DNA of 64,000 nucleotides from Candidatus Kaiserbacteria bacterium RIFCSPHIGHO2_01_FULL_58_22 (GTDB taxonomy: Bacteria > Patescibacteriota > Minisyncoccia > Phycocordibacterales > UBA2100), in assembly GCA_001781445.1 (NCBI GenBank), contig MFLB01000034.1, positions 17,793 to 81,792 of the forward strand. The letters are read 5' to 3'. Each line of letters opens with the position of its first letter. Position 1 is the first letter of the stretch. Made by a program: the position numbers and the translations under genes. The notes beneath the pieces are model-generated. The model was not told where the DNA came from and ran no database searches. It saw only the letters and a list, made by a program, of their open reading frames with translations. Below are positions 4,408-35,259 of this stretch, in pieces.

Positions 4408-4455
4408 CTTACATGGCAAGTCGCCAGAGATGAACAATAAGTAACGAAAACAGTC

Positions 4456-5031: not shown

Positions 5032-5051
5032 CGGTCATCAATGCAAAATGT

Positions 5052-5669: not shown

Positions 5670-6287
5670 ATGAAAAGTAAGAAAAACCTGCTGGAACAGC
5701 TGAATAATTTGCCCCATTTCACCAAAAGCACAGTGTATCAGCTCGGTAGTCAGTTAGGGTTAAAAAACAGTACGCTGAATACCTACATCAGCCGCTTTGT
5801 GAAGCGCAAGGATATTTTGCCGCTGAAAAACGGCCTGTATATCTCTGCCAAATTTTTCGCAGACAATAGAAGCGATATCTCGTACTCTTTCTACCTCGCA
5901 AACATACTCCGTACGCCATCGTACGTAAGTTCGTGGACCGCACTCCAGTACTACAATTTCACTACCGAGGCGATACGCTCCATCACGTCAATTACGTCGA
6001 AAGTCACACGGGATTACGAGACGAAGGCCGGCGCTTTTTCATATCAGTCAATCAACAGAAAACTTTTTTCGGACTACTCGCTCGTCAAAGGAAAATTTGA
6101 TTTCTACATCGCCTCGCCGTCTAAGGCGTTGTTTGACTTGCTGTACTTTAGGACGCACCAGTTCCGAGGCGTCCGGTTTGAAGACATTATAAAAATGGTA
6201 GAAGAATTGCGGATAGATATTGACGAAATGGACGAGGCGGAACGAAGCAATTTCTATGAAAAAGTAAAAGCATATCTCCATGAGTGA
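5670..6287 (+). CDS. AbiEi-like protein (type IV TA antitoxin / transcriptional regulator family; N-terminal wHTH)
   Basis: 205-aa ORF in a ~38% GC segment. Size, N-terminal HTH-like region and the 8-bp overlap with a downstream DUF1814 nucleotidyltransferase gene match AbiEi-AbiEii organisation. Confidence 0.6.
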   Translation: MKSKKNLLEQLNNLPHFTKSTVYQLGSQLGLKNSTLNTYISRFVKRKDILPLKNGLYISAKFFADNRSDISYSFYLANILRTPSYVSSWTALQYYNFTTEAIRSITSITSKVTRDYETKAGAFSYQSINRKLFSDYSLVKGKFDFYIASPSKALFDLLYFRTHQFRGVRFEDIIKMVEELRIDIDEMDEAERSNFYEKVKAYLHE

Positions 6288-7593: not shown

Positions 7594-7658
7594 AGTGAAG
7601 CGTAAATCCATGAAAAAATCGCTGATTGAAGAACTACCAAAAATTGTCGTCGAGTTCG

Positions 7659-7695
7659 TGCAGAACGGGGGAGGGAGCTGTGGTGCGTAGGTATC
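7659..7695 (+). repeat. 37-bp perfect direct repeat, right copy
   Basis: Identical to 4371-4407. Preceded by an AT-rich 26-codon ORF remnant (7610-7690, MKKSLIEELPKIVVEFVQNGGGSCGA) that ends with the same 11 residues as gene 3506-4402. Confidence 0.9.
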
Positions 7696-7723
7696 AGAAA
7701 AGTGATACATTGGAAGCAATCAT

Positions 7724-8047
7724 ATGAAACTCGGCATAATCTTACAATCCAACAAGCCGGAACACGCGTGGAATACGTTCCGCCTTGGCATCGCCGCGCT
7801 TAAAGCCGATCATCACGCGGAGATTTTCCTGATGAGCGAGGGGTCGGAGCTGGACGACATCCCGGACAGCGAAGACTTTGACGTTTCCGCGAAAGTCGCG
7901 GAATTCAAGGAACTGAAAGGCGCGATATACGCGTGCGGCTCGTGTCTGAAAGTGCGCGGCAGGGAAAGCGGGACGTGTCCGGTCTCCACGATGTCCGACT
8001 TGCTCGCCATGGTCGAAAGTTCGGACAAAGTGCTGGTTTTCGGATAG
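7724..8047 (+). CDS. DsrE/DsrF-like family protein
   Basis: 107-aa ORF (MKLGIILQSNKPEHAWNTFRLGIAAL...IYACGSCLKVRG) resembling the DsrE/YchN-like fold. Confidence 0.6.
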   Translation: MKLGIILQSNKPEHAWNTFRLGIAALKADHHAEIFLMSEGSELDDIPDSEDFDVSAKVAEFKELKGAIYACGSCLKVRGRESGTCPVSTMSDLLAMVESSDKVLVFG

Positions 8048-8139
8048 TCGCACGAGTGATGTTCGACCCGCGAGGCCGAACGCACCCCGTGAAATAGGGA
8101 TAAGCGCGGTCGCATGACCGGATATGCGCGGCACGGCGA

Positions 8140-8167
8140 TTGACAGGATACCCCCTGGGGGTATCAT
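8140..8167 (+). promoter_or_regulatory. promoter TTGACA-16-TATCAT with an embedded perfect 19-bp palindrome GATACCCCC-T-GGGGGTATC (8147-8165; CsoR/RcnR-type operator)
   Basis: Read directly from the sequence. The palindrome fills the spacer. The ATG of the ATPase gene is at 8174, which would give a leaderless or near-leaderless transcript. Confidence 0.6.
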
Positions 8168-8173
8168 GGAAAT

Positions 8174-11517: not shown

Positions 11518-13989
11518 ATGGCTCAAAAAGGCGTCAAAGTCTTGAAATTCGGCGGGACTTCCATGGGAAGCGCCGAGGCGATGAATCAGGTCATCGCCAT
11601 CGTGCGAAAACCCCGGCGCGATGCGCGCATCGCCGCAGTCGTCGTTTCGGCGATGAGCGGCGTTACCGACGAGCTTATCAAGACGGTGCATGCCGCCGCG
11701 CTCGCCGACGGCTCTCACAAGCCGCTCCTGAAACACATCGAGCGGCGCCACCTCGCCGCCGTCGCGCAACTCGTCGGCCGAAAAAACAGGAAGAAGGCGG
11801 TCGCGAGCGTCCGCGCCTTGCTCGAACATCTTAAAGAGGTCGTGACGGGTGTGAGCCTGATACGACAATTCTCTCCCGGCGCTCTCGATTACGTCATGAG
11901 CTACGGCGAGCGCCTCTCGGCGCACGTCCTGTGCGACGCGCTCAATGATCGTGGCGTTTTGTGCGAGTATCTAAACGCGCGGAGCGTGGTCATTACCGAT
12001 GAAAATTTCGGCGAAGCGGCGGTGGATCTCGCGCGCACCAACCGGGCGATACGCGCCCGCTTCAAAGCTCATCCGAAACTGCAGATCGTTACGGGCTTCA
12101 TCGGCGCGTCGGCCGACAAAAAGACGACGACGCTGGGCAGAGGCGGGAGCGACTACACCGCCTCCATTTTCGGCGCGGCGCTCGGCGCGAAGGTGATAGA
12201 AATATGGACGGACGTCTCGGGGGTGATGACCGCCGATCCGCGAAAGGTGGAAGACGCGAAAGCGATTGCGGAAATGACGTACCAGGAAGCCGTCGAAATG
12301 TCCTACTTCGGCGCGAAGGTGATTCATCCGCCGACGATGCGCCCCGCGCAGGAAAAAGGGATTCCCATCGCCATCAAAAACACGTTCGCGCCCGAGGCGC
12401 CGGGCACCATGATCGCGCGCGCGGCGCGCAAGACCGACGACCTCGTGCGGGGCATTTCTTCTTTCGGCGGCATCGCGATGGTCCAAGTGCAGGGCGGCGG
12501 CATGCTCCGCACGCGCGGGGCTTCGGGCCGACTCTTCGGCGCCTTGGCGCGCGCGCGGGTCAACGTGCTCCTAATCACCCAGGCCTCTTCGCAAAACTCG
12601 ATCTCGTTTGCCGTTCGGGAGAAGGACGTGGCGCGCGCGCGCGAGGCGATCGAGGAAGAATTCGCGGCGGAACGCTCGGCCCGCCTCATCGACGATATCG
12701 GCGTTACGCGCGGTCTTTCCATTATCGCGATCGTGGGCGAGGGCATGCGCCACCGCGCCGGCATCTCGGCCCGCCTTTTCGGAACGCTCGGCCGCAACGG
12801 CGTCAACATCGTCGCCATCGCGCAGGGCTCCTCGGAGCTGAACATCTCCGTCGTCGTCGCGGCGAGCGACGAAACGAAAGCCCTGAACGCCGTCCACACC
12901 GGATTTTTCTTCCCGGAAACGAAACCCATCCACCTGTTTTTGCTCGGCACCGGTCTCATCGGCTCGACGCTCCTCTCGCAGGTCTCGCGGCAAAGGGCGG
13001 TCTTGAAGCGCGAGCAGGGCTTCGACATCCGGCTCGCGGGGATCGGCAACAGCGAGCGTATGCTCTTCGATCGCGGCGACATCGCGCCCGAGAAATGGAA
13101 GGAGCGGCTCGAACGCTCGAAGACCCGCATGAACCTCGCCGCGTTCATCGAGACGATGAAGCGCGCGCCGCTTCCCGGCCGCGTCTTCGTCGATTGCACG
13201 GCTTCGGAGGAGGTCGCCCGCGCGTACGCCGAAATACTTGCCGCGCACATTTCCGTCGTCACGCCCAACAAGCGCGCGAACTCGGGCCCGTACTCCTATT
13301 TCAAGAAGCTCGCCGAACTCGCCAAGGAGCCCGGCGTCTCGTTCCTCTACGAAACCAACGCCTGCGCGGCGCTCCCCATCATCAGCATGATCGACGATCT
13401 CATCTTGAGCGGTGATCGCATTACGAAGATCGAAGGTATTCTCTCGGGTACCATGAGCTACATCTTCAATCAGTTCGCGGCCGCGAAAACGTTCAGCGAA
13501 TCCGTCGCGGAGGCCAAGCGCTTGGGATACACCGAACCCGATCCGCGCGACGATCTCGGCGGCATGGACGTGGCGCGCAAGATCCTCATTCTCGCGAGAA
13601 AGGCGGGTTTCCCGCTTGAGTTTTCCGATGTGAAGGTGCAGAGCCTGCTCACGCCGAAGGCCGCGCGCGCCAAAACGGTAGCCGGCTTTTTCCGGGAACT
13701 CGAAATAGAGGACGCCGCGTGGGAGCGCAGGAAGAGGGCGGCGGAGAAGCGGGGGGAGCGCCTGCGCTACATCGCGACCCTGGAGAAGGGGAAGGCGTCC
13801 GTGCGCATCCGCGCCGTGGCGCTCCCGCATCCCTTCTATGAGATGTCGGGGAGCGACAACATCGTGACGATCTCAACCGATCGGTATTCGAAGACCCCGC
13901 TTCTCATACAGGGGCCTGGGGCGGGCGGGGAGGTGACGGCGGCTGGCGTTTTCGCCGACATACTGCGGGCCGCGCGCGACGCCGCCTAA
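11518..13989 (+). CDS. thrA: bifunctional aspartokinase / homoserine dehydrogenase (ThrA-like)
   Basis: N-terminus KVLKFGGTSMGSAEAM (amino-acid kinase), two ACT-like regions, and a C-terminal HSD (LLGTGLIGSTLL Rossmann segment). 823 aa. Confidence 0.9.
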   Translation: MAQKGVKVLKFGGTSMGSAEAMNQVIAIVRKPRRDARIAAVVVSAMSGVTDELIKTVHAAALADGSHKPLLKHIERRHLAAVAQLVGRKNRKKAVASVRALLEHLKEVVTGVSLIRQFSPGALDYVMSYGERLSAHVLCDALNDRGVLCEYLNARSVVITDENFGEAAVDLARTNRAIRARFKAHPKLQIVTGFIGASADKKTTTLGRGGSDYTASIFGAALGAKVIEIWTDVSGVMTADPRKVEDAKAIAEMTYQEAVEMSYFGAKVIHPPTMRPAQEKGIPIAIKNTFAPEAPGTMIARAARKTDDLVRGISSFGGIAMVQVQGGGMLRTRGASGRLFGALARARVNVLLITQASSQNSISFAVREKDVARAREAIEEEFAAERSARLIDDIGVTRGLSIIAIVGEGMRHRAGISARLFGTLGRNGVNIVAIAQGSSELNISVVVAASDETKALNAVHTGFFFPETKPIHLFLLGTGLIGSTLLSQVSRQRAVLKREQGFDIRLAGIGNSERMLFDRGDIAPEKWKERLERSKTRMNLAAFIETMKRAPLPGRVFVDCTASEEVARAYAEILAAHISVVTPNKRANSGPYSYFKKLAELAKEPGVSFLYETNACAALPIISMIDDLILSGDRITKIEGILSGTMSYIFNQFAAAKTFSESVAEAKRLGYTEPDPRDDLGGMDVARKILILARKAGFPLEFSDVKVQSLLTPKAARAKTVAGFFRELEIEDAAWERRKRAAEKRGERLRYIATLEKGKASVRIRAVALPHPFYEMSGSDNIVTISTDRYSKTPLLIQGPGAGGEVTAAGVFADILRAARDAA

Positions 13990-14070: not shown

Positions 14071-15165
14071 ATGAGCAAGAAAATACCAGTCGGGATACTC
14101 GGCGCGACCGGCATGGTCGGCCAGCAGTACATACGGCTTTTGGAAAACCACCCGTGGTTCGAGGTGGCCTACGTCGCCGCTTCGCCGCAGTCCGCCGGTA
14201 AGAAATACAAAGACGCTTTGCGGAGCGGCTGGATCGTCGCGGGAGAGTTGCCCGCGCGCGTCGGCGGGATGACCGTGGAAGACGTGAGCGACGCCGCGAA
14301 AGCCGCCAAAAAATGCGCGTTCGTTTTTTCCGCGTTCGAAATACCGGAAAAAGACCTGATCCGGAAATACGAAGAAGACTACGCCGCCGCCGGCGTACCC
14401 GTCTTTTCCAACGCCTCGGCGCACCGGGCCACCTCCGACGTGCCGATGATCATCGCCGAGATCAATCCACACCATCTGGACATCATCCCCATCCAGCAAA
14501 AACAGCGCGGATGGAAAAAAGGTTTTATCGTCGTAAAGCCGAATTGCTCTCTGCAAAGCTACCTCACGCCGATCTTCGCGCTTCAAAAAGGAGGCTATCC
14601 CGTCGAAAGAATGATAATCACGACGCTTCAGGCGACCTCGGGCGCGGGATATCCGGGCGTGGCTTCGCTCGACATGGTGGACAACGTCGTTCCCTACATC
14701 GGCGGCGAGGAAGAAAAGAGCGAACAAGAGCCGCTGAAAATCCTCGGAGAAGCGAAAGGAGGGAAATTCGTTCCGTACAAAGGCCTCGCGATTTCCGCGC
14801 ACTGCAACCGCGTACCCGTTTCCGACGGGCACCTTGCGTGCGTGAACGTGCTCTTCGGGAAAAAGAAACCGGCGCGCGAAAAAATCCTCGACATTTGGAA
14901 GAAATTTCGCGCGGAGCCGCAACGATTGGACCTCCCTTTTGCGCCCAAACAGCCGATCATCTACCGCGATGAGCAAAACCGGCCCCAGCCGAAGCGGGAT
15001 CGCGACTCCGACAAAGGCATGGCTGTTACGGTGGGGCGACTGCGGCCGGACGCCATCTTCGACTTCAAGTTCGCCGCTCTCTCGCACAACACAATCCGCG
15101 GCGCCGCCGGCGGCGGCATTCTGAACGCGGAGTTGGCCTACAAAAAGGGCTTTCTTAAGGCATAA
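14071..15165 (+). CDS. asd: aspartate-semialdehyde dehydrogenase
   Basis: IPVGILGATGMVGQ NAD(P)-binding N-terminus and the KPNCS active-site region. 364 aa. Confidence 0.9.
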   Translation: MSKKIPVGILGATGMVGQQYIRLLENHPWFEVAYVAASPQSAGKKYKDALRSGWIVAGELPARVGGMTVEDVSDAAKAAKKCAFVFSAFEIPEKDLIRKYEEDYAAAGVPVFSNASAHRATSDVPMIIAEINPHHLDIIPIQQKQRGWKKGFIVVKPNCSLQSYLTPIFALQKGGYPVERMIITTLQATSGAGYPGVASLDMVDNVVPYIGGEEEKSEQEPLKILGEAKGGKFVPYKGLAISAHCNRVPVSDGHLACVNVLFGKKKPAREKILDIWKKFRAEPQRLDLPFAPKQPIIYRDEQNRPQPKRDRDSDKGMAVTVGRLRPDAIFDFKFAALSHNTIRGAAGGGILNAELAYKKGFLKA

Positions 15166-15223
15166 AACGGCTTCTCCCACCTCCTCCCGCACCGACCGGG
15201 AAACGTACGCTACAATACTTATT

Positions 15224-16771
15224 ATGCTTTCAGAGTCCATACGGGAGCTGATAGGGAAGATCGAGGCCACCGAAGAAGCCGAACGTACGGCGGCGCCGGG
15301 CCAGCAGGCGCTCGAGGGCAATACGATCGTCGCGAAGGCCGCCTCGCTCTACGAAAAACTCCGATACCTCGTGGATTATCGCGAGGAGCATACGATACGA
15401 CGCGCCGCGCTCGAGCGGATACTGAAGCGGCGCGTCTTCATCGAGCAGAAGGCCGAAAGCGGCCTCGTGCTCCTTCAGGAGCTCGTCGACGGCAAGTACA
15501 TACCGAAGGAGGCGGCGACCGAGGAGGCGGCGCGCGACATCGACACGATAGTCAATAAGTTCCTCCAGCTTTCACGCCTCGCGAGCGCGAACGGCGCCGT
15601 CGTGCGTCGGCTCATCAGCTTCGCCGCGACCGAGATCGACGCCCGGATCTCGCCGCTCGAGTACGCGACCGACCATGAAAGCGCCGAGGCGCTCTACAAG
15701 ACGCTCCGGGGCCGGGTGAGCGCGTACGGATACTCGGAGGAGGAAACGAACGCCCAGCTCTATTGCGCGTGCTGGAGGTCCCTCCTCGGCGCCGACGACG
15801 ACCGTCTCGCCCATGCGCTCTGGCTCCTCTATGTGCCCGGGTGGCGCGCGGGGAGCGCGGATCTGCAGGAGGTGGCGGGAAAGCTTCCCGCGCTCGTCGC
15901 CAACATCCGCGACACGGTGCGCGGCTCGCTCCAGTGGCAGATCGCGCCGAAGATAAAGAACGAGAGCATCTACTTCCGAATCATCCGCGAGGCGTTCGCC
16001 TCCAAGCGCGGCGCGGCCGGGCGCATTTTGGAAAATCCGACCCAGCTGGACCAGTTCACGAGGGACTTTCTCGAAAAGACGTACGAACAGGAGAAAGAGC
16101 GGATACAAAAAAGCGGCATCCGCGCCGTCGTCTATCTTTTCGTCACGAAGATGGCCGTCGCGCTCGTCGCCGAGCTTCCGTATGAGATCTTCGTCCTCGG
16201 GGGGGTCCACTACGTGCCGCTCACTATCAACATCCTTTTTCATCCGGCCCTGCTCTTCGCCCTCACGCGCAACGCTGGCGCTCTCGGCGAAGCGAACACG
16301 AACGCGATCGTCGAAGGCATCCACGGCGTTCTTTACGAGGGAAAGGCGCGGAGCGTGCGCGTGCGGAGCGGCTATTCGCGCTTCACGCTCGCGTTCGCGC
16401 TCGCATACCTCTTTCTCTTTATCACCGTGTTCGGCAGTGTCATCGGATTTCTCGAGTTGCTTTCCTTCAATCCCGTTTCCATCACGCTCTTCCTCTTTTT
16501 CCTCGCGCTCGTCTCCTACTTCGCGTTCCGCATCCGCTATCGCGCGCGCCGCTGGAAGGTGGTCCGCGAAGAGGGTACGCTCTCCATCATCGCGGGCGTA
16601 CTCGCGGTGCCGATCGTGCGCGCCGGCGAATGGCTCTCGCGCACATTCTCCTCCATCAATGTCTTCGTCATGATAATGGATTTCATCATCGAGACGCCCT
16701 TCAAGCGGCTCCTTAATTTCTCAAATCAATTCCTGCTGTATCTCCGAGAAAAAGGTGAAGAAATCAGGTAA
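15224..16771 (+). CDS. hypothetical protein with C-terminal multi-TM region
   Basis: 515-aa ORF with consistent codon usage. No family recognised. Confidence 0.5.
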   Translation: MLSESIRELIGKIEATEEAERTAAPGQQALEGNTIVAKAASLYEKLRYLVDYREEHTIRRAALERILKRRVFIEQKAESGLVLLQELVDGKYIPKEAATEEAARDIDTIVNKFLQLSRLASANGAVVRRLISFAATEIDARISPLEYATDHESAEALYKTLRGRVSAYGYSEEETNAQLYCACWRSLLGADDDRLAHALWLLYVPGWRAGSADLQEVAGKLPALVANIRDTVRGSLQWQIAPKIKNESIYFRIIREAFASKRGAAGRILENPTQLDQFTRDFLEKTYEQEKERIQKSGIRAVVYLFVTKMAVALVAELPYEIFVLGGVHYVPLTINILFHPALLFALTRNAGALGEANTNAIVEGIHGVLYEGKARSVRVRSGYSRFTLAFALAYLFLFITVFGSVIGFLELLSFNPVSITLFLFFLALVSYFAFRIRYRARRWKVVREEGTLSIIAGVLAVPIVRAGEWLSRTFSSINVFVMIMDFIIETPFKRLLNFSNQFLLYLREKGEEIR

Positions 16772-16814
16772 GAAGACTTGCGCATCCGAGGTAAGACGTT
16801 AGAATCCCAGGATT

Positions 16815-18086
16815 ATGGAAAATAATCCGTGGGAGAGAGCGCGCGCGCAGATGCATGCGGCGGCATCGCATCTTTCGCTCCCGCCGGCGTTCATCGAACG
16901 CATGGAAAAGCCGGATCACGTTATCGAGGTCTCCATGCATGTGCCGATGGACGACGGGCGCACGGAGGTTTTTCACGGCTATCGCGTCCAGCACAACAAC
17001 CTCCGCGGCCCCTACAAAGGCGGTCTTCGATATCATCCGAAAGTAGACATGGACGAGGTAAAGGCGCTCGCGTTCTGGATGACCGTGAAAAACGCCGTCA
17101 TCGATGTCCCGTTTGGCGGCGGGAAGGGAGGCATTACGGTCGACCCGAAGAAGCTCTCGGAGGGCGAGCTTGAGCGCCTGACGCGCGCATTCGCGCGGGA
17201 GCTCGCGCCGTACATCGGCCCGGAGATAGACGTGCCCGCGCCCGACGTGAACACCACGCCGAAGATCATGTCGTGGATCCGCGACGAATACGGCAAGGCG
17301 GTTGGCAAGGATACGCCAGCGGTCGTTACTGGAAAGCCTGTCGGCGCGGGCGGCTCGGAAGGAAGAACGGAAGCGACGGGCCTCGGCGGTTTTTACGCGC
17401 TCATGGAGATCGTGCGGCTTTCGGGGAGAGGACACAGCGGCTTGAAGGCCGCGATACAGGGTTTCGGCAACGTGGGCAGTTTCCTTGCCGGATACATGAA
17501 GGAGGCGGGGTTTCGCGTCGTCGCGCTTTCCGATTCGAAAGGCGGTCTCTATATCCCGAAGGGCATAGACGATCTGAAGGCGGTCGCGGAGTGCAAAGAG
17601 CGAAGCGGCACGCTCGCCGGATGCTACTGCGTCGGGAGCGTGTGCGATCTTTCCAACATGGAGCTTTTGGGAGGCCGCGATATTTCCCCGAAGGAGGTCT
17701 TGACGCTTCCAGTGGACATCGTCGCGCCTTCGGCCCTCGAAAATGCCATCACGAAAGAGAACGCCGCCGCGATCCAAGCTGGCATTGTTCTCGAAATGGC
17801 CAATGGTCCGACAACGCTCGAAGCCGACGAGATCCTGCGGAAGAAGGGTGCGATGGTCATACCGGATATTCTCGCCAATGCCGGCGGCGTTGCGGTTTCC
17901 TACTTCGAGTGGTATCAGAACATGCACGGCGAGACATGGAAAAAGCAAGATGTGTTCGCTAAGCTCAAGGAGAAGATTGATGCCGCGGCACGTGCCGTCT
18001 TTGCCGCCTCGGAGGAATACTCGGTTTCCCTGCGTGAAGCGGCCTACATCGTGGCGCTCAAGCGCCTCTCCGACGCCGCCTACTGA
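16815..18086 (+). CDS. gdhA: glutamate dehydrogenase
   Basis: DVPFGGGKGGITVDPKK and GFGNVGS motifs. 423 aa. Confidence 0.9.
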   Translation: MENNPWERARAQMHAAASHLSLPPAFIERMEKPDHVIEVSMHVPMDDGRTEVFHGYRVQHNNLRGPYKGGLRYHPKVDMDEVKALAFWMTVKNAVIDVPFGGGKGGITVDPKKLSEGELERLTRAFARELAPYIGPEIDVPAPDVNTTPKIMSWIRDEYGKAVGKDTPAVVTGKPVGAGGSEGRTEATGLGGFYALMEIVRLSGRGHSGLKAAIQGFGNVGSFLAGYMKEAGFRVVALSDSKGGLYIPKGIDDLKAVAECKERSGTLAGCYCVGSVCDLSNMELLGGRDISPKEVLTLPVDIVAPSALENAITKENAAAIQAGIVLEMANGPTTLEADEILRKKGAMVIPDILANAGGVAVSYFEWYQNMHGETWKKQDVFAKLKEKIDAAARAVFAASEEYSVSLREAAYIVALKRLSDAAY

Positions 18087-18645: not shown

Positions 18646-19413
18646 ATGGAGAGATTCATCCAGCGCATCGCCAAAAAAGCCGGCGACGCCGTACTCGAGA
18701 AATTCGGCAAATTTGGCGTTCACTATTTGAAATCGGAACACCGCGGAGATGCAGTGACAAAAGCAGACCTTATCGCTGATAAAATTATAACGAGCGCGAT
18801 CAAGAAGACCTATCCCTCTCATGGGATTATCTCGGAGGAAAGCGGAAGGACGCGCGAAGACGCTGAATATGTATGGATCACCGACCCTATAGACGGAACT
18901 TTCAATTTTGCGACAAGCGTGCCCCTCTTCGGGGTGATGGTCGCGCTAGCACGCAAGGGAATTGTTGAACTTTCCGCGATCTATTTGCCGACGACAAAGG
19001 AATTCTTTTTTGCGAAGCGTGGCAAAGGATCATTCTTGAACGGGAAGAAAATACATTGTTCTCGTGTCACGGACTTCACTGTGTCCGCTGGGATAGGGCC
19101 AACATGGCTTCGACCACGGGCAATAAAATTCATGTCAAGACTCCTGAAACATTCCGAGAATATGAACGTGATGTTCAATGGCTACGGGAGTATCGCGGTC
19201 GACGCTGCGTATATGGCGGCAGGTCGAAGGGATTGGTTTGTCGGTTTTGGTGCTCATGTGCACGACTACGCACCCATATCGCTTCTCATGAAAGAATCAG
19301 GTTGCAGGATATCGAACGCGAAAGGTAGACCGTGGACCATCCTAGACACCGAGATTGTCGCCGCAAATCCCACTCTGCACAAACAGCTTTTGAAGCTCAC
19401 GAAGAACGTATAA
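18646..19413 (+). CDS. inositol monophosphatase family protein (SuhB-like)
   Basis: WITDPIDGTFNF and the other IMPase motifs. 255 aa. Confidence 0.85.
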   Translation: MERFIQRIAKKAGDAVLEKFGKFGVHYLKSEHRGDAVTKADLIADKIITSAIKKTYPSHGIISEESGRTREDAEYVWITDPIDGTFNFATSVPLFGVMVALARKGIVELSAIYLPTTKEFFFAKRGKGSFLNGKKIHCSRVTDFTVSAGIGPTWLRPRAIKFMSRLLKHSENMNVMFNGYGSIAVDAAYMAAGRRDWFVGFGAHVHDYAPISLLMKESGCRISNAKGRPWTILDTEIVAANPTLHKQLLKLTKNV

Positions 19414-19466: not shown

Positions 19467-19748
19467 ATGAACTGGAGTAGTCCGGCAAATACGGCCTTGA
19501 TCAAGGCTTTTCTGGCACTCAAGAGTGCGCGGGAGGCGCGCTCCTTTTTGCGCGACCTTCTCACCGAAACAGAGCTAGAAGAATTTGCAAAACGCCTCAA
19601 GACGGCGTCTCTGCTTGCCAAGAAAGTCCCGTACTCGACGATCGAGGCGGAGACCGGACTTAGTTCGACGACAATCGCGCGCGTCGCTCATTGGCTCCAT
19701 CGCGGCATGGGTGGGTATCGCTTGGTGCTTAAGCGTCTTAAACAGTAA
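19467..19748 (+). CDS. YerC/YecD-family TrpR-like protein
   Basis: 93-aa protein (SFLRDLLTETELEEFAKRL...STIARVAHWL) typical of the Trp-repressor-like YerC family. 55 bp upstream of hisG. Confidence 0.7.
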   Translation: MNWSSPANTALIKAFLALKSAREARSFLRDLLTETELEEFAKRLKTASLLAKKVPYSTIEAETGLSSTTIARVAHWLHRGMGGYRLVLKRLKQ

Positions 19749-19803: not shown

Positions 19804-20427
19804 ATGATGCATCTCATATACAACCAAGAACGACTGCGCATCGCGGTGCAAAAGAAGGGCAGGCTCCACGAAGCGAGCATGAAATACCTCTCTTCGCGCG
19901 GACTCTCGTTCCCACAAAACGGCAAATCGCTCATTCAGTCATCCGAGGATTCCGATGTCGATGTTCTCTACTTGCGGGACGATGACATCCCGGAATATGT
20001 CATGCGAGGTGTTGCAGATCTCGGTATCGTCGGGGAAAATGTACTCGCCGAACGGGATAAGCAACTCTCCATCGTCGCGAAACTGGGCTTCGGAGAATGC
20101 AAACTCATAATCGCGGTGCCGAAGAATTCGAGGATGAAGGTTCCGGCGGACCTGCGGGGCAAACGCATTGCAACGTCATACCCAAACTTGCTCAGCGCTT
20201 TCCTCAAGAAAGAAGGCGTTGAAGCCGAAATCGTGTCTATTTCCGGTTCGGCGGAAATTACGGTCGAACTCGATCTTGCCGACGCGGTCTGCGACATCAC
20301 GCAGACGGGCGCTACGCTCGCGGCGCACGAGCTTGTGCCAATCGTTACCATAATGGAATCTCAAGCGGTACTCATCGAAAGTGCCGGGAAGAGCATGCGG
20401 AAACAGGATTTTTTAAAAGGGTTATGA
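19804..20427 (+). CDS. hisG: ATP phosphoribosyltransferase, short form (HisGs)
   Basis: LRIAVQKKGRLHE...MRGVADLGIVGEN. 208 aa, the short-form length. In-frame ATG at 19804 within ORF 19585-20427. Confidence 0.85.
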   Translation: MMHLIYNQERLRIAVQKKGRLHEASMKYLSSRGLSFPQNGKSLIQSSEDSDVDVLYLRDDDIPEYVMRGVADLGIVGENVLAERDKQLSIVAKLGFGECKLIIAVPKNSRMKVPADLRGKRIATSYPNLLSAFLKKEGVEAEIVSISGSAEITVELDLADAVCDITQTGATLAAHELVPIVTIMESQAVLIESAGKSMRKQDFLKGL

Positions 20428-21707
20428 AAACACTCTCAACCAAAAAAGAATCCATCACTGCGCTCATAAAGCGCCTCCGGCGCGCGCGAAGCAAACGGAG
20501 CGACGTGGAAGATTCGGTACGGCGAATTGTCGATGACGTGCGGCGAAGAGGCGATCGCGCGCTTATCGATCTTACGAAGAAATTCGATGGCGTCGCTCTG
20601 AAGCGCTTGCGGGTGTCTGAAGCGGAAATACGCACGGCGTACCGCATTGAATCGAGAGACGTTGTCCGAGCGCTCAAGAGCGCCCGCGCCGCCATTGCAA
20701 AATTCCACGCGCAAAACGTGAAAAGGGAGAAAGCGGTCGAAACGCAGAAAGGCGTGCGGGTATGGCGCGAATTCCGGCCCATCGAGAACGTCGGCCTCTA
20801 TGTGCCGGGAGGCAAGGCCGCGTATCCGTCTACCGTTTTGATGCTTGGCGTTCCGGCGAAACTGGCTGGATGCAAAGAGGTGGTGCTCTGCGTCCCGCCG
20901 GATAGGAGTGGCAAAGTCCCGAGTGCGGTGCTCGTGGCGGCAGATCTGTGCGGCATCTCGAAGATTTTCAAAGTGGGCGGCGCGCAGGCAATCGCGGCCC
21001 TTGCATACGGCACGAAGACCATCCCGAAAGTTTCAAAGATATTCGGGCCGGGGAACCAGTACGTGACGACTGCCAAGATGCAAGTCTTCGGAGAAGTCGA
21101 CATCGACATGCCCGCCGGGCCCTCGGAGGTACTCGTGCTCGCGGATGCGAGCGCGAATCCCGCATGGGTCGCCGCAGACCTACTCTCCCAGCTCGAACAC
21201 GGGGAAGATTCGCAAGCCATTCTCGTCACCCCTGATGCGAAGTTTGCCGCAGACGTCGTGAAGAACGTCAATGAGCAGGTCAAAACGCTGAGCCGCGGAG
21301 CGATCATCGGGAAATCCCTCAAGCGGAGCTTTGCCGTTGTCGTGAAATCGATTGACGAAGCGTGCCGCTTTATCAATGAGTATGCGCCGGAGCACTTGGA
21401 AATCGTGCTCAAAAAGAATGAAGCAAAGGTTCTGAAGAAAATCGAGAATGCCGGCTCCATCTTCCTTGGCCCGTACGCGTCCGAACCGTTGGGTGATTAC
21501 GCAACAGGCGCGAACCACACGTTGCCGACATCGGGATTCGCGAAGATGTTTTCAGCCCTCTCGGTCGAATCATTTGGCAAGAAGATGCAAATACAGCGCG
21601 TCTCAAAGCGCGGGATCGCGAATCTCCGCAAAACAGTCGAAACGCTGGCAGATCGGGAGGGCCTTGATGCTCACAAGAGGGCTGTCGGTATCCGCTTCAA
21701 AAAATAA
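20424..21707 (+). CDS. hisD: histidinol dehydrogenase
   Basis: 427 aa with typical HisD sequence. Overlaps hisG by 4 bp. Confidence 0.9.
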   Translation: MKTLSTKKESITALIKRLRRARSKRSDVEDSVRRIVDDVRRRGDRALIDLTKKFDGVALKRLRVSEAEIRTAYRIESRDVVRALKSARAAIAKFHAQNVKREKAVETQKGVRVWREFRPIENVGLYVPGGKAAYPSTVLMLGVPAKLAGCKEVVLCVPPDRSGKVPSAVLVAADLCGISKIFKVGGAQAIAALAYGTKTIPKVSKIFGPGNQYVTTAKMQVFGEVDIDMPAGPSEVLVLADASANPAWVAADLLSQLEHGEDSQAILVTPDAKFAADVVKNVNEQVKTLSRGAIIGKSLKRSFAVVVKSIDEACRFINEYAPEHLEIVLKKNEAKVLKKIENAGSIFLGPYASEPLGDYATGANHTLPTSGFAKMFSALSVESFGKKMQIQRVSKRGIANLRKTVETLADREGLDAHKRAVGIRFKK

Positions 21708-21708
21708 T

Positions 21709-22746
21709 ATGATCGATAACCTCGTCAGGAAAAATGTAAAAAACCTGAAGCCGTATGCCTCGGCGCGCTCTCTTTACCAGGAGGGGGTCTTCTTCGATGC
21801 CAATGAAAACGCGCTCGGAAGCACTGTTACGGTCCCGGATGTTCCGGACCTGAACCGCTATCCCGATCCGAAATCCGCCGATCTGCGGAAAGCCATCGCG
21901 GCATACGTTGGAGTCGATCCGGCGCAGGTGTTCGTGGGGAACGGCTCCGACGAGGCAATCGATCTTCTCATCCGCGTGTTTGTCGAGCCGAATGAAGCCG
22001 TCATAATCGTTGAGCCGACATATGGCATGTACAAGGTAGCGGCCGAGACAGCAGGGGTGGAAATACGTCCGTGGCCTCTCACCGGTTCCTTCCAGCTCGA
22101 CCTCTCATCTCTCGGTACTGTCTCCGCGGGGGCAAAACTCATCTTTTCCTGCTCGCCCAACAATCCGACAGGAAATCTGCTCCCCATCGAGGATGTGCGG
22201 GGGCTCTGCTCGAAATTCAAGGGCATTGTCGTCCTTGATGAAGCATACATAGAATTTGCCTCTCAGCCTTCATTGGCGGAAAAAGTCCGTGAGATTGAAA
22301 ATCTCGTCGTACTTCGGACGTTCTCCAAGGCGTGGGGGCTGGCGGGGATTCGCGTCGGCTATGCGATCGCACATCCGAAGGTAATAGGGTATATGGACAG
22401 AATAAAGGCGCCTTACAACCTCGGCCGCGTGAGCGCCGCGCTTGCGCAGAGGGCGCTCAAGAATAAAGATGATATGCTTCGCATGCGGGAGCGCATCCTC
22501 GCCGAGCGCTTGCGCGTCGCGAGGGAGCTCAAGGAGGTGAATTTCAACGTATTCGAAAGCGAGGCGAATTTTCTCTTGGTGCAGTATCCCGGTATGTCAA
22601 AAATCGCAACAATACTCGCCGAAGAATACGGGCTCATTATCCGGGATTTTAGCGGGAGGGAACGGCTCGAAGATTGCGCGCGCATCACCATCGGGACGCC
22701 GGAGCAAAACGACCGATTAGTAGAGACTCTAAAGAAGATCGTATGA
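21709..22746 (+). CDS. hisC: histidinol-phosphate aminotransferase
   Basis: LKPYASARS N-terminus and the TFSKAWGLAGIRVGY PLP-lysine motif. In-frame ATG at 21709. Confidence 0.85.
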   Translation: MIDNLVRKNVKNLKPYASARSLYQEGVFFDANENALGSTVTVPDVPDLNRYPDPKSADLRKAIAAYVGVDPAQVFVGNGSDEAIDLLIRVFVEPNEAVIIVEPTYGMYKVAAETAGVEIRPWPLTGSFQLDLSSLGTVSAGAKLIFSCSPNNPTGNLLPIEDVRGLCSKFKGIVVLDEAYIEFASQPSLAEKVREIENLVVLRTFSKAWGLAGIRVGYAIAHPKVIGYMDRIKAPYNLGRVSAALAQRALKNKDDMLRMRERILAERLRVARELKEVNFNVFESEANFLLVQYPGMSKIATILAEEYGLIIRDFSGRERLEDCARITIGTPEQNDRLVETLKKIV

Positions 22747-23810
22747 AAAAGCAACAGAAGAAATCTCCGATGAAAGTCGCGTTTCTCGATCGCGATGGCA
22801 CTCTCATTTTCGAGCCGCCGGTGACTGAACAAGTGAACGGACCCGAGCAGTTGCGCATTTTGCCGGGTGTTGTCGAGGGGCTGAAAAAGCTCATCGCCGA
22901 AGGGTTTGCGTTGGTTATGGTTACGAATCAGGACGGACTTGGTAGCCGTTCATATCCCCAGAAGAATTTCGACGCGGTTCAGGGCGCGCTGTTCAAGCGC
23001 TTGAAAAAAGAGGGGGTTCAGTTTTATCGGATTTTCATTTGTCCGCACTTCCCGAAGGAAAAGTGTGCATGCCGCAAGCCGAAAGTCGGCCTCCTGAAGG
23101 GTTTTCTCAAGAAAGCATCCGTTGATCGCGGAGCATCTATAGTCGTGGGAGATCACGATTCGGACGAAGAATTCGCAAAAAATATCGGCATTCGATTCTA
23201 CCGAATGGAAACGAATGGCGCGTTTCCGCGCTTTGCGTCTCTCAAGCGAGAGACGAAAGAAACCGCCATTTTGGCAGAGTGTAATCTCGACGGCACCGGC
23301 GCTTTCAGCATCAGTACGGGGTTACGTTTTTTCGACCACATGCTAGAGCAATTTTCGAAGCACTCCCTCATAGACCTTCGAATCAAGGCGAAGGGGGATT
23401 TGGATATAGACGACCACCACACGATCGAAGACGTCGGTCTCGCTCTCGGGGAAACGCTGAAGAATGCCCTCGGCGAGCGCCGCGGCATCAAGCGGTACGG
23501 CTTTCTCCTGCCCATGGACGACGTGCTCGTGGAGTGCGCCGTCGATCTCGGCGGGCGCCCGTATTTGGCGTTTAATGCGTCGTTCAAGCGCGAGAAGGTC
23601 GGCGATCTTCCGACCGAGATGGTAGAGCACTTCTTCCGGTCGGTAGCCGAAACCTTGAAAGCGAACATCCACATCAATGTGAAATACGGCACGAATGAGC
23701 ACCACAAGATTGAAGCGATCTTCAAGGCGTTCGCTAAGGCAATGAAGGATGCCGTTGCCTTGGATCCTCGCCGGAAGAATGAACTTCCCACGACCAAGGG
23801 GGTTCTATGA
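22743..23810 (+). CDS. hisB: bifunctional histidinol-phosphatase (HAD) / imidazoleglycerol-phosphate dehydratase
   Basis: N-terminal HAD motif FLDRDGTLI plus C-terminal IGPD (DHHTIEDVGLALGE). ATGA overlap with hisC. Confidence 0.85.
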   Translation: MKKQQKKSPMKVAFLDRDGTLIFEPPVTEQVNGPEQLRILPGVVEGLKKLIAEGFALVMVTNQDGLGSRSYPQKNFDAVQGALFKRLKKEGVQFYRIFICPHFPKEKCACRKPKVGLLKGFLKKASVDRGASIVVGDHDSDEEFAKNIGIRFYRMETNGAFPRFASLKRETKETAILAECNLDGTGAFSISTGLRFFDHMLEQFSKHSLIDLRIKAKGDLDIDDHHTIEDVGLALGETLKNALGERRGIKRYGFLLPMDDVLVECAVDLGGRPYLAFNASFKREKVGDLPTEMVEHFFRSVAETLKANIHINVKYGTNEHHKIEAIFKAFAKAMKDAVALDPRRKNELPTTKGVL

Positions 23811-24397
23811 ACATCTCGGTCATAGACTATGGGGCGAGCAATTTGCAGAGCGTCGGCAATGCGCTCGAGAAGTTGGGAGTATCGTTCGACGTCATCACGA
23901 CGCCGGAAGGATTGAAAGGCACCGACAAGGTCATTCTGCCCGGCGTGGGCGCCGCCGGAAGCGCGATGCAAGCGCTCATGGCGCGCGGATTTGCCGCCGC
24001 CTTGCCGAATCTCACGGTCCCCATACTCGGAGTGTGTCTTGGTCTGCAGCTTTTCGCACGCATGAGTGAGGAGGACAATACGACATGCCTCGGCATTCTC
24101 CCGGGCGATGTGAAGCGTCTTCGCACCGAGCTAAAAGTGCCGCACATGGGATGGAATCGCGTTCGCTTGCTCAAGGATTCACCGCTCACAAAAGGAATTC
24201 CAGATGGCAGTTTCTTCTATTTCGTAAACTCCTACTATCTACCTGTCGGCGAATTCACAACGGGAGAAACGATATACGATGTGCCACTTACCGCGATAGC
24301 GCAAAGGGGAAATTTCTACGGCACGCAGTTCCACCCCGAAAAATCGGCGGAGTGGGGCATGAAGATACTCGATAACTTCTGCCGCCTATCCCGGTAG
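23807..24397 (+). CDS. hisH: imidazole glycerol phosphate synthase, glutamine amidotransferase subunit
   Basis: Class-I GATase (GVCLGLQLF, catalytic H/E near the C-terminus). 196 aa. Confidence 0.9.
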   Translation: MNISVIDYGASNLQSVGNALEKLGVSFDVITTPEGLKGTDKVILPGVGAAGSAMQALMARGFAAALPNLTVPILGVCLGLQLFARMSEEDNTTCLGILPGDVKRLRTELKVPHMGWNRVRLLKDSPLTKGIPDGSFFYFVNSYYLPVGEFTTGETIYDVPLTAIAQRGNFYGTQFHPEKSAEWGMKILDNFCRLSR

Positions 24398-24536
24398 TGA
24401 AATGTGCCTTAGGCTTACACAAATCTATGGAAACAAATAACGAATGTATCCAAAGTGCAACACGCGAGAGTTCATGGTTCACGCCGCGCCAAGACGGCGT
24501 GCCGCTTGGCGCAAAGGCACATTCTACCAACCGGGT

Positions 24537-26009
24537 ATGCTGATAATTCCGGCAATAGACATCCTCGACGGGAAATGCGTGCGGCTTACGCGCGGCGAAT
24601 ACGTTACGCAAAAGATATACGGCGATCCGCTGAAGTTCGCGAAACAGCTCGAAAGCGACGGCGCGCGCATGCTCCACGTCGTTGATCTCAACGGCGCGCG
24701 CGACGGCGCGCCCGCGAACCGCGAGCTCATCATGCGGATATGCTCGGCGGTTTCCATTCCCGTCGAGGTCGGGGGAGGCATACGAAAAGCGGAGACGGCG
24801 CGGGCGTATCTCGCCGCGGAAGCGGCGCGCGTCGTAACAGGCACGAGGGCCATGGACGACATGGACTTCGTCGGTGAGCTCATACGCGAGTTCGGCGCTT
24901 CACGCATCGTCGTCGCGCTGGAAATAAAGGGCGGGAAGGTCGCCGTCAAGGGATGGCAGTCCACGGTGCACAAGGACTATCGCGAGCTCGCGCGCGAGCT
25001 CAAGGCCCGCGGCGTTACCGAGCTCCTCTTTACCGACGTCGAGCGGGACGGCACGCTGACGGAGCCCAACTTCGAAGTGGTGCGGGAACTCGCCGCTCTC
25101 GGGTTCAACGTCATCGCCTCGGGGGGCGTTTCGGACGTGCAAGCGATACGAAAACTTCGGGAGCTCGGCGCCGCAAGCGCGATAATCGGCAAAGCGCTCT
25201 ACGAGGAGAAGATGACGCTCGGAGAGGCCGAGGAAGCCGCGCGGCCGCTTTCCGGATTGGCGAAGCGCATCGTTCCGTGTCTCGACGTCAAGGACGGGAA
25301 GGTGGTGAAGGGAATTTCGTTCGAGAATCTTCAAATCGTTGGCGATCCGGCGGCGCTCGGCAAGAAATATTCCGCGGAAGGAGCCGATGAACTCGTTTTT
25401 CTCGATATCTCCGCATCGAAGGAAGGAAGGGAAACGATGTTCAGCGTTGTCGAGCAGGTTGCGAAGGAAGTCTTCATTCCTTTCACCGTCGGCGGCGGCA
25501 TCTCGAGCGTGGAGCAGATGCGGCGGCTTCTCCACCTCGGAGCCGAAAAGGTTTCAATCAATACAGCGGCCGTCAAAGACCCTTCTCTCATCACGGCAGG
25601 TTCGAAGGCTTTCGGCTCACAAGCTATCGTCGTTGCAATAGACGCGAAGCGCGTAGGAACAGGATGGAAAGTGTTTTTGAGAGGCGGCTCTGAAGAAACA
25701 CAGCTCGACGCGATAGCGTGGGCGAAAGAAGCAGAAACACGAGGCGCAGGAGAAATACTGCTTACTTCGATGGACAAAGATGGGCAGAAATCCGGATACG
25801 ATATCGAGCTTTTGCGACGAGTCTCGGAGGCAGTGCGCATTCCCGTCGTCGCTTCCGGCGGGGCCGGTTCGCTCGAAGACCTGAAACGCGCGCTTACCGA
25901 CGGCTCGGCCGATGCGGCGCTCGTCGCGAGCCTTTTCCACTACGGGGAGTATAGTATTACAGACGCCAAGGAATACCTCGCGAAAGAGGGTATTTCGATG
26001 CGCACATAA
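24537..26009 (+). CDS. hisAF: fused HisA (ProFAR isomerase) - HisF (IGP synthase cyclase subunit) in one ORF
   Basis: The N-terminal ~240 aa read [17 protein letters not shown]...[13 protein letters not shown] (HisA). After a short linker, [16 protein letters not shown]...GGGISSV...[12 protein letters not shown] (HisF). No stop codon between them in the six-frame track. A start at 24474 is an alternative. Confidence 0.8.
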
Positions 26010-26012
26010 GAT

Positions 26013-26612
26013 ATGACAAAAAAACTCAACATTGATTGGAAGAAGGGAGGGGGTTTCGTGCCAGCCATTGTGCAAGATGCCGAAACGCGGGCCGTCTTGA
26101 TGCTCGGTTATATGAACAAAGCGGCGCTCACGAAGACACTCAAGACGAAGAAGGTTTGGTTTTGGAGCAGAAGCAAGAAGCGTCTCTGGATGAAAGGGGA
26201 GTTCAGCCGGAACATCCTGCAATTCACGGGTTATGAAATTGATTGCGACGGAGACGCGCTCCTCGTGAAAGCCCGACCCGCGGGGCCCACCTGCCACACG
26301 GGCGACTATTCCTGTTTCGGCGAGAAGAAGGCGAGAGATGTGTTCGCCGAACTTGCCGCCGTCATCGCGGAGCGCAAAAAGAAAATGCCCGTCGGCTCCT
26401 ACACCACCTCGCTTTTCAAGGCAGGAGTGGGGAAAATAACGGCAAAAGTAAAGGAGGAAGCACTCGAGGTCGTTAAAGCCGCCAAAAAGGAAACCAAAAA
26501 ACGCCTGACTGAAGAAACTGTCGACCTCGTCTACCACCTCCTCGTCCTTCTCGCGGAGAAGAACGTCTCGTTTTCCGAGATAGGCAAAGAAATCCGAAAG
26601 CGCCGCGCGTGA
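26013..26612 (+). CDS. hisIE: bifunctional phosphoribosyl-AMP cyclohydrolase / phosphoribosyl-ATP pyrophosphatase
   Basis: HisI core (DCDGDALL...CHTGDYSCF) followed by a HisE-like C-terminus. 199 aa. Confidence 0.85.
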   Translation: MTKKLNIDWKKGGGFVPAIVQDAETRAVLMLGYMNKAALTKTLKTKKVWFWSRSKKRLWMKGEFSRNILQFTGYEIDCDGDALLVKARPAGPTCHTGDYSCFGEKKARDVFAELAAVIAERKKKMPVGSYTTSLFKAGVGKITAKVKEEALEVVKAAKKETKKRLTEETVDLVYHLLVLLAEKNVSFSEIGKEIRKRRA

Positions 26613-34239: not shown

Positions 34240-35259
34240 TTATCGGTCGTCCATCTCTTTTCCGCCGTGGAACTTTTCATGTATGTCGCGCAGGCGTTTA
34301 TTGGTGACATGCGTATAGATTTGCGTGGTCGCGACGTTCTTGTGGCCGAGAAGCTCCTGCACGCTCCGCAGGTCCGCTCCGTGAGAGAGAAGATCCGTCG
34401 CGTAGGTATGCCGGAGCGTGTGGGGCGTTACCTTTTTCGCGAGGCCGGCGAGAACCGCGCATTTCGAGATCATCATTTGTATGTAGCGGGGCGAGAGGCG
34501 CCTGTTTTCGGTTTTTTTCGACCGGTGGTTGATGAAGAGCGGATCGTGGACGTCGCGGCGGGTCGCGAGGTATGCACGCAGCCACTTGGCCGCGCGGGGG
34601 GAGATGAACACCGTTCTGACATATTTTCCTTTGCCCACGATGGAAAGCTCGAACGTCCGCGCGCCGTCCTCCTGCTTGAGGAAAGAGACGCGATCGGCGT
34701 CGAGCGCGGTGAGTTCCGAAATGCGCATTCCCGAAGAGAAAAAAAGTTCCATGATCGCGCGGTCGCGCAATCCGTTCTGCGTCGAGACGTCCGGTATCTT
34801 CAGCATGCGCTCCATATCCCGCGTGTCCAAGAAGGAGATTGTCTCGTCGGACTTCTGTTTGGCAAGCTTGATCTTCGACGAAGGAAGAGACTCGATGTCG
34901 CGGTCGGCGAAATAAGCAAGAAGGGCCCGCAGGGCGATGAGGTAGTAGTTCTGGGACTTTTTGCTCAAGGAGGCGCCCACGGGCGTTTTGTGCCCGCGGG
35001 CGAGGTAGAGGCGGTAGTCCCAAATATGCCGGGCGGTAAGCTCGCGGGGAAGCAGAGACTCTTGTCCGGTTTTGCGGAGCCACGTCGTGAACAGCTTCAG
35101 ATACTGTCCGTAATTTTTCTGTGTATTGTTCGAAAGCCCTTTCTCGATCTCGCAGTAATCAAGGAACGGCGTTACGTACGATGAGATTTTCTTTTGCGTC
35201 GCGGGGGAGGTGGGGGACATGAGGTATGACTGTGACGTTACTATTATTTTATACGGCAA
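34240..35259 (-). CDS. tyrosine site-specific recombinase (XerC/XerD-like)
   Basis: C-terminal HTLRHTYATDLLSHGADLRSVQELLGHKNVATTQIYTHV (R-H-R-Y catalytic region) and an N-terminal SAM-like domain. 339 aa. Confidence 0.85.
   Translation of the reverse strand: MPYKIIVTSQSYLMSPTSPATQKKISSYVTPFLDYCEIEKGLSNNTQKNYGQYLKLFTTWLRKTGQESLLPRELTARHIWDYRLYLARGHKTPVGASLSKKSQNYYLIALRALLAYFADRDIESLPSSKIKLAKQKSDETISFLDTRDMERMLKIPDVSTQNGLRDRAIMELFFSSGMRISELTALDADRVSFLKQEDGARTFELSIVGKGKYVRTVFISPRAAKWLRAYLATRRDVHDPLFINHRSKKTENRRLSPRYIQMMISKCAVLAGLAKKVTPHTLRHTYATDLLSHGADLRSVQELLGHKNVATTQIYTHVTNKRLRDIHEKFHGGKEMDDR

Follow-up and report, generated by a model that had tools for sequence, protein, structure and literature searches.

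Fusions among the genes of histidine biosynthesis are a recognised phenomenon, and the catalogued examples are hisIE, hisNB, hisHF (the HIS7 architecture) and hisIED (HIS4) (Fani et al., 2007, PMC1963479; Del Duca et al., 2020, PMC7284861; 2023 review, PMC10138114). Seven genes with fusions are named in the reviews of the subject, and hisA is not among them (PMC1963479; PMC7284861; PMC10138114). Five his 'fusions' are treated by Fani et al. (2007), where 'hisA/hisF' denotes the ancient elongation of a half-barrel inside each gene (PMC1963479). 'HisA/F fusions with HisIE' have been reported from four DPANN or unclassified archaeal assemblies and were called scarce (PMC11237513, 2024). Here we describe hisAF, an open reading frame (ORF) at positions 24537–26009 of the forward strand of a 64,000-nt stretch of contig MFLB01000034.1 from Candidatus Kaiserbacteria bacterium RIFCSPHIGHO2_01_FULL_58_22 (this whole stretch is called the window, and positions refer to it), in which a complete HisA barrel is followed by a complete HisF barrel. 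[quoted passage not shown] The fusion appears to be undescribed and to extend the published his-fusion catalogue.

The frame that contains hisAF is open from 24444 to 26009 (+) and reads as 521 residues when counted from its first ATG in the ORF list. The true start is almost certainly the ATG at 24537, which leaves 490 codons plus a stop, because all 37 fused homologues in our alignment (A1, which with the window protein holds 38 fused proteins) start at MLIIPAIDI or lack just its first 2–9 residues; the 31 residues added by the start at 24444 have no counterpart among these relatives, and the extension made by automatic callers would be spurious. Two His_biosynth domains were recognised by Pfam (E = 1.7e-158), and the NCBIfam equivalog models for both enzymes scored well above their cut-offs. 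TIGR00007 (HisA) gave 381 bits against a cut-off of 229, with residues 3–230 covering model positions 1–230 of 231, and TIGR00735 (HisF) gave 454 bits against 294.6, with residues 240–489 covering model positions 1–254 of 254. The HisA barrel occupies residues 1–236 (24537–25244, +) by the family model, by end-to-end alignment to solved HisA/PriA chains and by the complete (beta/alpha)8 pattern of an AlphaFold2 (AF2) model; E230–R236 can still be aligned to the C-terminal helix of the solved chains, which stop at about residue 235–236. The HisF barrel runs from L241 to T490 (25257–26006, +) by its family model and by alignment to 1thf, 1gpw and 2wjz. It enters at HisF residue 2, L241-A242-K243-R244 being equivalent to residues 2–5 of Thermotoga maritima HisF, and the HisF initiator Met is gone.

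Once solved HisA/PriA on one side and T. maritima HisF on the other have been aligned, only four residues are left between them, P237-L238-S239-G240 (25245–25256, +), a block with a predicted local distance difference test (pLDDT) score of about 79 in the AF2 model. Of 137 fused proteins, 85 have a spacing of exactly 19 residues from GKALYE to KRIIPCLD, across this joint. An earlier note on this DNA, made by a model from the sequence, had placed HisA and HisF in a single 490-residue ORF starting at 24537 with no stop between the barrels, and had put a linker of roughly 10 residues between them. The ORF list, the sequence itself, both family models and the starts in A1 bear out the single ORF, and the junction at 25230–25290 is free of stop codons in the raw sequence and in the ORF list; a joint between two complete barrels is indeed present, but it is shorter than proposed. 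At its simplest, the fusion would have replaced the stop codon of hisA, any spacer after it and the start codon of hisF with four sense codons.

Both barrels look catalytically competent, in that the key residues are present along with the family matches. In the HisA half, D8 and D171 align with D7 and D176 of Salmonella enterica HisA, which stand where strands beta-1 and beta-6 end; D171 does not vary across A1, and D8 hardly does. Position 129 is the equivalent of the beta-5 carboxylate (S. enterica D129, T. maritima D127) and is Glu here, Asp and Glu alternating at this site in the fused family. We take D7, D176 and D129 of the S. enterica enzyme (D127 in T. maritima) to be its catalytic carboxylates. 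In the HisF half, R244, E285, K338 and E406 correspond to R5, E46, K99 and E167 of T. maritima HisF, the four ammonia-gate residues, and all four are invariant in the 38 fused proteins. The same is true of D250 and D369, which correspond to D11 and D130 of T. maritima HisF, the catalytic acid and base (PMC11350729). Overall, about 250 columns of the HisF half align with solved T. maritima HisF, at 50–57% identity. A HIS7-type HisH-HisF architecture is not present in hisAF, since hisH is a separate ORF that ends 139 nt upstream (23807–24397, +; TIGR01855, 205 bits against a cut-off of 105), as had been noted from the sequence. Its nucleophile Cys in GVCLGLQ and the His and Glu of FHPEKS are intact in alignment with the solved HisH chains 4gud and 1ka9.

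The window protein is already public (GenBank KKW47456.1; UniRef100_A0A0G1YW04) under the automatic UniProt name "Multifunctional fusion protein" and is assigned to Candidatus Kaiseribacteriota, within the Parcubacteria group of Patescibacteria, or Candidate Phyla Radiation (CPR). A search of 5.8 billion proteins yielded at least 120 clusters (90% identity level) with the HisA-HisF architecture and a length of about 490 residues, ranging from 71% down to 49% identity, and no unfused protein stands among these closest clusters listed. Query coverage is 97–100% for nearly all of them and 90–93% for a few that are truncated. Relatives carry the names Candidatus Peregrinibacteria, Gracilibacteria or 'Patescibacteria group bacterium', together with one Acidobacteria metagenome-assembled genome, and the host contigs of fused genes range from 37 to 58% GC. 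When a HisH-HisA-HisF protein served as the query, at least 80 further 90% clusters of this triple fusion were found, some of them named Peregrinibacteria or Kerfeldbacteria; the names Kerfeldbacteria, Woesebacteria and 'Patescibacteria group' came from this search. Domain assignment over 402 sequences (401 fetched plus the window protein) counted 181 HisA-HisF and 76 HisH-HisA-HisF proteins, and eight carried an extra C-terminal extension of more than 150 residues, which was HisIE in the examples scanned.

NCBIfam scans of the longer fused representatives at 50% identity showed further variants, namely HisA-HisF-HisIE (P0085, 689 residues; P0147, 773 residues), HisH-HisA-HisF (P0134, 707 residues; P0145, 784 residues) and HisH-HisA-HisF-HisIE (P0144, 933 residues). 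The last of these joins four gene products with five catalytic activities, and its ORF was recovered without internal stops from two independent contigs of a 70% GC host (L088, 6466–9267; L089, 2460–5261), where it lies in an aro-hisZ-hisG-hisD-hisC-hisB-[HAFIE]-trpEGDCF cluster. Two other arrangements were seen: the reverse order, HisF then HisA, in a 626-residue protein (P0169), and a HIS7-type HisH-HisF fusion of 478 residues from Candidatus Woesebacteria (P0388). A HMMER search of 1.84 billion representatives gave, among the best 150 of the 50%-identity representatives, about 21 clusters with HisA before HisF and one with HisF before HisA.

As a control, 80 loci listed from a genome scan were examined, from ordinary Bacillota, Pseudomonadota, Bacteroidota and others, with no CPR genome among the matches listed. 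The patterns used in the scan, L[TA]KRI[IV]PCL and [VI][FSN]IPFTVGG, matched ordinary HisF genes widely, and tblastn merged adjacent hisA and hisF genes into matches spanning '1-489', so each locus was rechecked for a single ORF that spans both barrels. None was found in the 80 loci: each has either hisF without hisA or the two genes side by side as distinct ORFs. With the control loci unfused and many CPR clusters fused, the fusion is therefore a rarity among bacteria as a whole but common within CPR. The earlier note had called it unusual, which holds across bacteria generally (none of the 80 loci, and about 21 of the best 150 representatives) but not within Patescibacteria/CPR, where it is conserved. 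That it is common in its own lineage is thus plain; a prior description, which the note had coupled with commonness as grounds for dismissing the find, did not turn up, and we found no relevant account of a HisA-HisF fusion, or of histidine biosynthesis in Patescibacteria/CPR, in the searchable full-text literature, outside which most subscription journals lie.

Active sites of (beta/alpha)8 barrels lie at their C-terminal faces. In hisAF the joint leaves HisA where helix alpha-8 ends and enters HisF where strand beta-1 begins, on the side of each barrel that faces away from its active site. The AF2 model of the hisAF product, made with A1, contains two complete barrels (pLDDT 92; predicted template-modelling score, pTM, 0.67), and its C-terminal barrel matches solved HisF with a template-modelling (TM) score of about 0.9 relative to the target; none of the matches among solved structures spans both barrels. 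A model of a natural HisH-HisA-HisF relative (pLDDT 90.8, pTM 0.75) has the yeast HisH-HisF enzyme (1ox5, 1jvn) as its best matches in the Protein Data Bank, with TM-scores of 0.73–0.76 normalised to a target of about 530 residues. HisF alone could not reach such values, and the predicted structure of this relative, which is not the window protein, would therefore preserve the canonical arrangement of HisH and HisF and loop HisA out between them. Our proposal is that the adjacent genes hisA and hisF were fused in frame to give a bifunctional enzyme in which each barrel would work like its stand-alone counterpart. [quoted passage not shown] In HisF the ammonia traverses the barrel to reach the active site at the C-terminal face (PMC9032424). 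Any benefit would be expected to lie in a fixed 1:1 stoichiometry, co-folding and the proximity of consecutive steps in compact operons, rather than in a demonstrated PRFAR tunnel.

Metagenome-assembled CPR genomes are error-prone, UGA is recoded in some CPR lineages so that gene callers can mis-join genes, and one seeming fusion in the genome scan (L049), rejected as an ordinary-bacterial example, proved to be a spurious, out-of-frame open stretch, rich in Arg, Gly and Pro, in a high-GC genome. It might thus be argued that hisA and hisF are truly separate here and that the open junction reflects an error of assembly, frameshift or gene calling, or the read-through of a recoded stop. Such a reading is almost certainly wrong. 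The junction is without any stop under translation table 11, and the identical 521-residue call is found on 23 contigs of 2–200 kb from independent samples and assemblers (several ENA assemblies, JGI 3300025317 and a Rifle groundwater scaffold), with the same neighbours on all. More than 120 diverged clusters share an in-frame joint of conserved length, and six independently fetched fused ORFs (L001 and L085–L089) contain no internal stop when read with table 11, which rules out read-through of a recoded stop. The stop-free junction, the concordant contigs and the joint conserved in relatives effectively refute an artefact: the HisA-HisF fusion is genuine and its identity secure. A different question is whether one barrel has been repurposed, the C-terminal one as a HisF paralogue of the WbuZ/AglZ type, which act in sugar amidation, or the N-terminal one as a dual HisA/TrpF isomerase of the PriA type. 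The WbuZ model does exceed its own cut-off on the C-terminal barrel (380 bits against 299.7), and the AglZ model does so marginally (326 against 310), but both fall below the 454 bits of the HisF model, which matches end to end over residues 240–489; the dual-substrate PriA model (TIGR01919) stays at 241 bits, under its cut-off of 306. Moreover, the gene lies within a complete his operon beside hisH, hisB and hisIE, with no glycan cluster, and we regard repurposing of either barrel as very improbable.

Two further readings accept the fusion and differ over its meaning. One holds that the chain is a covalent metabolon, whose fixed geometry hands the labile PRFAR from the HisA to the HisF site and couples HisA turnover to the allosteric activation of HisH. 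HisA and HisF do catalyse consecutive steps, HisH is stimulated by the binding of PRFAR or ProFAR to HisF (PMC11350729), the same lineages add HisH and HisIE onto the same chain, and the prevalent 19-residue spacing looks more like a fixed inter-domain arrangement than a floppy tether. [quoted passage not shown] The assertion in the earlier note that the fusion would channel PRFAR thus draws no support from anything computed here, and we think the metabolon reading unlikely. Its broader form, that the HisA-HisF proteins of Patescibacteria, with their HisH-HisA-HisF and HisH-HisA-HisF-HisIE relatives, constitute a natural covalent version of the long-hypothesised hisBHAF 'metabolon' with defined geometry, direct passage of PRFAR and coupling to HisH activation, seems to us an equally poor prospect. 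If it did hold, the fusion would be a 'Rosetta stone', implying that free HisA and HisF associate in ordinary bacteria too. The second reading takes hisAF to be selectively neutral, a side effect of the extreme compaction of operons in the small genomes of CPR, where loss of a stop codon fuses abutting genes without cost and the product then persists. Given the very compact operons of the relatives, in which nearly every his gene overlaps the next by 1–10 nt, and the other fusions found in the same cluster across lineages (hisC-phosphatase in L086, HisH-HisA-HisF, HisA-HisF-HisIE and HisH-HisA-HisF-HisIE), a largely neutral origin by stop loss is a serious rival. The distance trees lend it some weight as well. 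In a neighbour-joining tree of HisF halves the window protein and all sampled close relatives form one purely fused clade (22 of 22), and other fused representatives adjoin unfused HisF or HisH-HisF sequences, a scatter that suggests repeated independent events; with HisH-HisA-HisF proteins added there are three large pure fused clades, one of which mixes HisA-HisF and HisH-HisA-HisF. Taken loosely, this pattern points to a small number of old fusions, to sporadic independent ones besides, and to more than one gain or loss of hisH, and we draw no firm conclusion on the number of events because the trees are crude (BLOSUM distances, no support values). Retention of the fusion over deep divergence (about 50% identity and a GC range of 37–58%) with a conserved length of joint, and the absence of any unfused protein among the at least 120 closest relatives listed, suggest at least some constraint, and we consider a neutral fusion possible but somewhat doubtful.

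We therefore favour a bifunctional isomerase-cyclase that works with a separate HisH, and several points weigh against it. The joint enters HisF at its N-terminal face, and interference with HisH is conceivable, which makes this the main mechanistic worry; the HIS7 architecture, in turn, indicates that the HisF N-terminus tolerates a fused domain with HisH on that face. For the compatibility of HisA with the docking of HisH we rely on the model of another protein, a triple fusion, and the relative orientation of the barrels in the window protein is not confidently predicted (pTM 0.67). The Glu at position 129, where S. enterica and T. maritima HisA carry Asp, is a departure in the HisA half, if a conservative one. 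The translational overlap of hisH and hisAF seen in relatives is broken here by a structured spacer of 139 nt. The first enzyme of the pathway is a short HisG without HisZ in the window, so the whole pathway may not run in this organism. Finally, we infer the enzyme activity of every fused member, including the retention of both activities in hisAF, from the sequences and their conserved residues.

The operon around hisAF lies on the forward strand throughout, with gene calls on identical contigs mapped to the window by an offset of 14443. It opens with a gene for a hisR-like regulator of the YerC/TrpR family (19467–19748; Pfam Trp_repressor; TIGR02531, 63 bits against a cut-off of 42), the first of the conserved cluster, followed by hisG (19804–20427; TIGR00070), hisD for histidinol dehydrogenase (20424–21707; Pfam Histidinol_dh, E = 5.9e-171), hisC for histidinol-phosphate aminotransferase (21667–22746; Pfam Aminotran_1_2 and gene call) and hisB (22770–23810). 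Downstream of hisH and hisAF comes hisIE, encoding a bifunctional phosphoribosyl-AMP cyclohydrolase and phosphoribosyl-ATP pyrophosphohydrolase (26013–26612; NF002747, 254 bits; Pfam PRA-CH plus PRA-PH), which starts 4 nt after hisAF. The earlier note had described a short-form HisG, an E. coli-like bifunctional HisB and no hisZ in the window, and on all three counts we agree: HisG has 207–210 residues (207 in the gene call), with Pfam HisG as its only domain and no HisG_C regulatory domain; HisB scores 451 bits against a cut-off of 443 with NF003937, the model for the bifunctional histidinol-phosphatase/IGP dehydratase; and no HisZ/HisRS homologue was found in the 64 kb by Pfam on large ORFs or by tblastn (best E 0.79). 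The cluster hisR-hisG-D-C-B-H-AF-IE is conserved in two relatives (L085 and L087), and a third (L086) keeps the gene order but fuses the phosphatase differently, a HAD histidinol-phosphatase domain being joined to the C-terminus of HisC (498 residues, 7328–8824) and the IGP dehydratase being separate (8821–9423). This HisC-phosphatase pairing is likewise missing from published his-fusion lists. In L085 the start of hisG is overlapped by a HisS-like gene (4120–5412) in the usual position of hisZ, and this gene passes the cut-off for hisS but falls short of that for hisZ; no HisS-like gene adjoins hisG in L086, L087 or the window. Also in L085, in two stretches downstream of hisIE (12267–13913 and 14226–16887), are a histidine ammonia-lyase-type gene and two more HisS paralogues.

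A TIGR02531 regulator stands at the head of four CPR his clusters, in the window and at L085 3762–4061, L086 5037–5327 and L087 5089–5376, and it is directly upstream of hisG in three of the four, the HisS-like gene lying between in L085. HisR, the product of B. subtilis yerC, is a histidine repressor of the TrpR family in Firmicutes, and CPR is not among the HisR-containing phyla listed (PMC9413887). By family match and position the window regulator is probably a HisR orthologue. A single match to the core of the Firmicutes HisR operator consensus, TTTAN6TAAA, is present in the window; it lies a long way from the operon, and one match is no more than chance would give. No Rfam family reached its gathering score anywhere in the window, and the GC content of the operon (0.54–0.58, within a window range of 0.44–0.64) is uninformative on recent transfer.

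The spacer between hisH and hisAF (24398–24536, +) is non-coding and closed by the inverted repeat AAATGTGCCT ... AGGCACATT, with a second GC-rich hairpin inside. Its predicted RNA fold has an energy of -47.3 kcal/mol (z = -2.6 against shuffles), and, as against a repeated mobile element, it has no other copy in the window. In relatives the hisH stop overlaps the hisAF start and there is no spacer; it is because of the spacer that gene callers start hisAF 93 nt too early.

Other genes of the window deserve brief mention. Directly upstream of the his regulator is an inositol-monophosphatase (IMPase)-family gene (18646–19413). In some bacteria the histidinol-phosphate phosphatase (HisN) belongs to the IMPase family, and if this gene encoded such an enzyme, its function would duplicate that of the HAD phosphatase domain in HisB. 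Further upstream lie an E. coli ThrA-like aspartokinase/homoserine dehydrogenase fusion of 823 residues (11518–13989), an aspartate-semialdehyde dehydrogenase (14071–15165) and a glutamate dehydrogenase (16815–18086), a neighbourhood unusually rich in amino-acid biosynthesis for CPR, a group generally described as biosynthesis-poor. An AbiEii-type nucleotidyltransferase toxin gene (6280–7593), downstream of an ORF without a Pfam match (5670–6287), lies where the GC content drops to 44% from a surrounding level of about 60%; it probably belongs to a toxin-antitoxin or abortive-infection module that was acquired. A tyrosine recombinase gene on the reverse strand (34240–35259; Phage_integrase and SAM-like N-domain), some 8 kb downstream of the operon, may encode XerC/D or else the integrase of a mobile element; L086 has a similar gene close to its his operon.

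HisA and HisF are the textbook duplication pair, in which a half-barrel gave a barrel and the barrel gave two paralogous barrels for successive steps, and their natural rejoining in one chain adds a further step to that history. There is nothing mechanistically exotic here: the event is of an ordinary type in an under-described place, and its main value is as a test-bed for the metabolon of the his core and for barrel evolution, with a natural two-barrel scaffold now at hand for protein evolutionists and engineers. Since hisA-hisF fusions, and longer chains with hisH and hisIE, are widespread in uncultivated small-genome bacteria, the published fusion catalogue is incomplete. Fusions are a classic sign of physical association, and the unconfirmed hisBHAF metabolon hypothesis therefore becomes directly testable by comparing fused with split proteins. 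There is also a practical consequence for annotation, because NCBI names the fused relatives just 'HisF' or 'HisA', and reconstructions of CPR pathways may wrongly score one step as missing.

Compared with stand-alone HisA (TIGR00007; S. enterica 5ahe and T. maritima HisA) and HisF (TIGR00735; T. maritima 1thf and 1gpw), the two halves of hisAF belong to the same full-length families and share the hisH partner and the operon neighbours; they differ in forming one polypeptide with a four-residue joint, in the loss of the HisF initiator Met and in the Glu at the position of HisA Asp129. Engineered 'HisAF' chimeras are single 8-stranded barrels with one half from each protein, and the hisAF product is distinct from them as a natural tandem of two whole barrels. 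The closest recognised his fusion is HIS7/HisHF of fungi, plants and a few prokaryotes (1jvn, 1ox4-6; PMC1963479), which likewise carries its partner on the HisF N-terminus. In HIS7, however, the partner is HisH, an obligate subunit, whereas in hisAF it is HisA, the preceding enzyme, and HisH is separate; in related CPR proteins HisA is inserted between HisH and HisF. The archaeal fusions (PMC11237513) similarly join a HisA/HisF-type barrel to further his enzymes in uncultivated small-genome lineages, but they pair a single unresolved HisA/F barrel with HisIE, while the fusion described here is bacterial, widespread and composed of two distinguishable barrels. With the catalogued his fusions it shares the kind of event, neighbouring pathway genes fused in frame in particular lineages, and two of them, hisIE and hisNB, are present in this very operon. 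The catalogued 'hisA/hisF fusion' is another matter, being the elongation of a half-barrel and not a two-barrel HisA-HisF protein.

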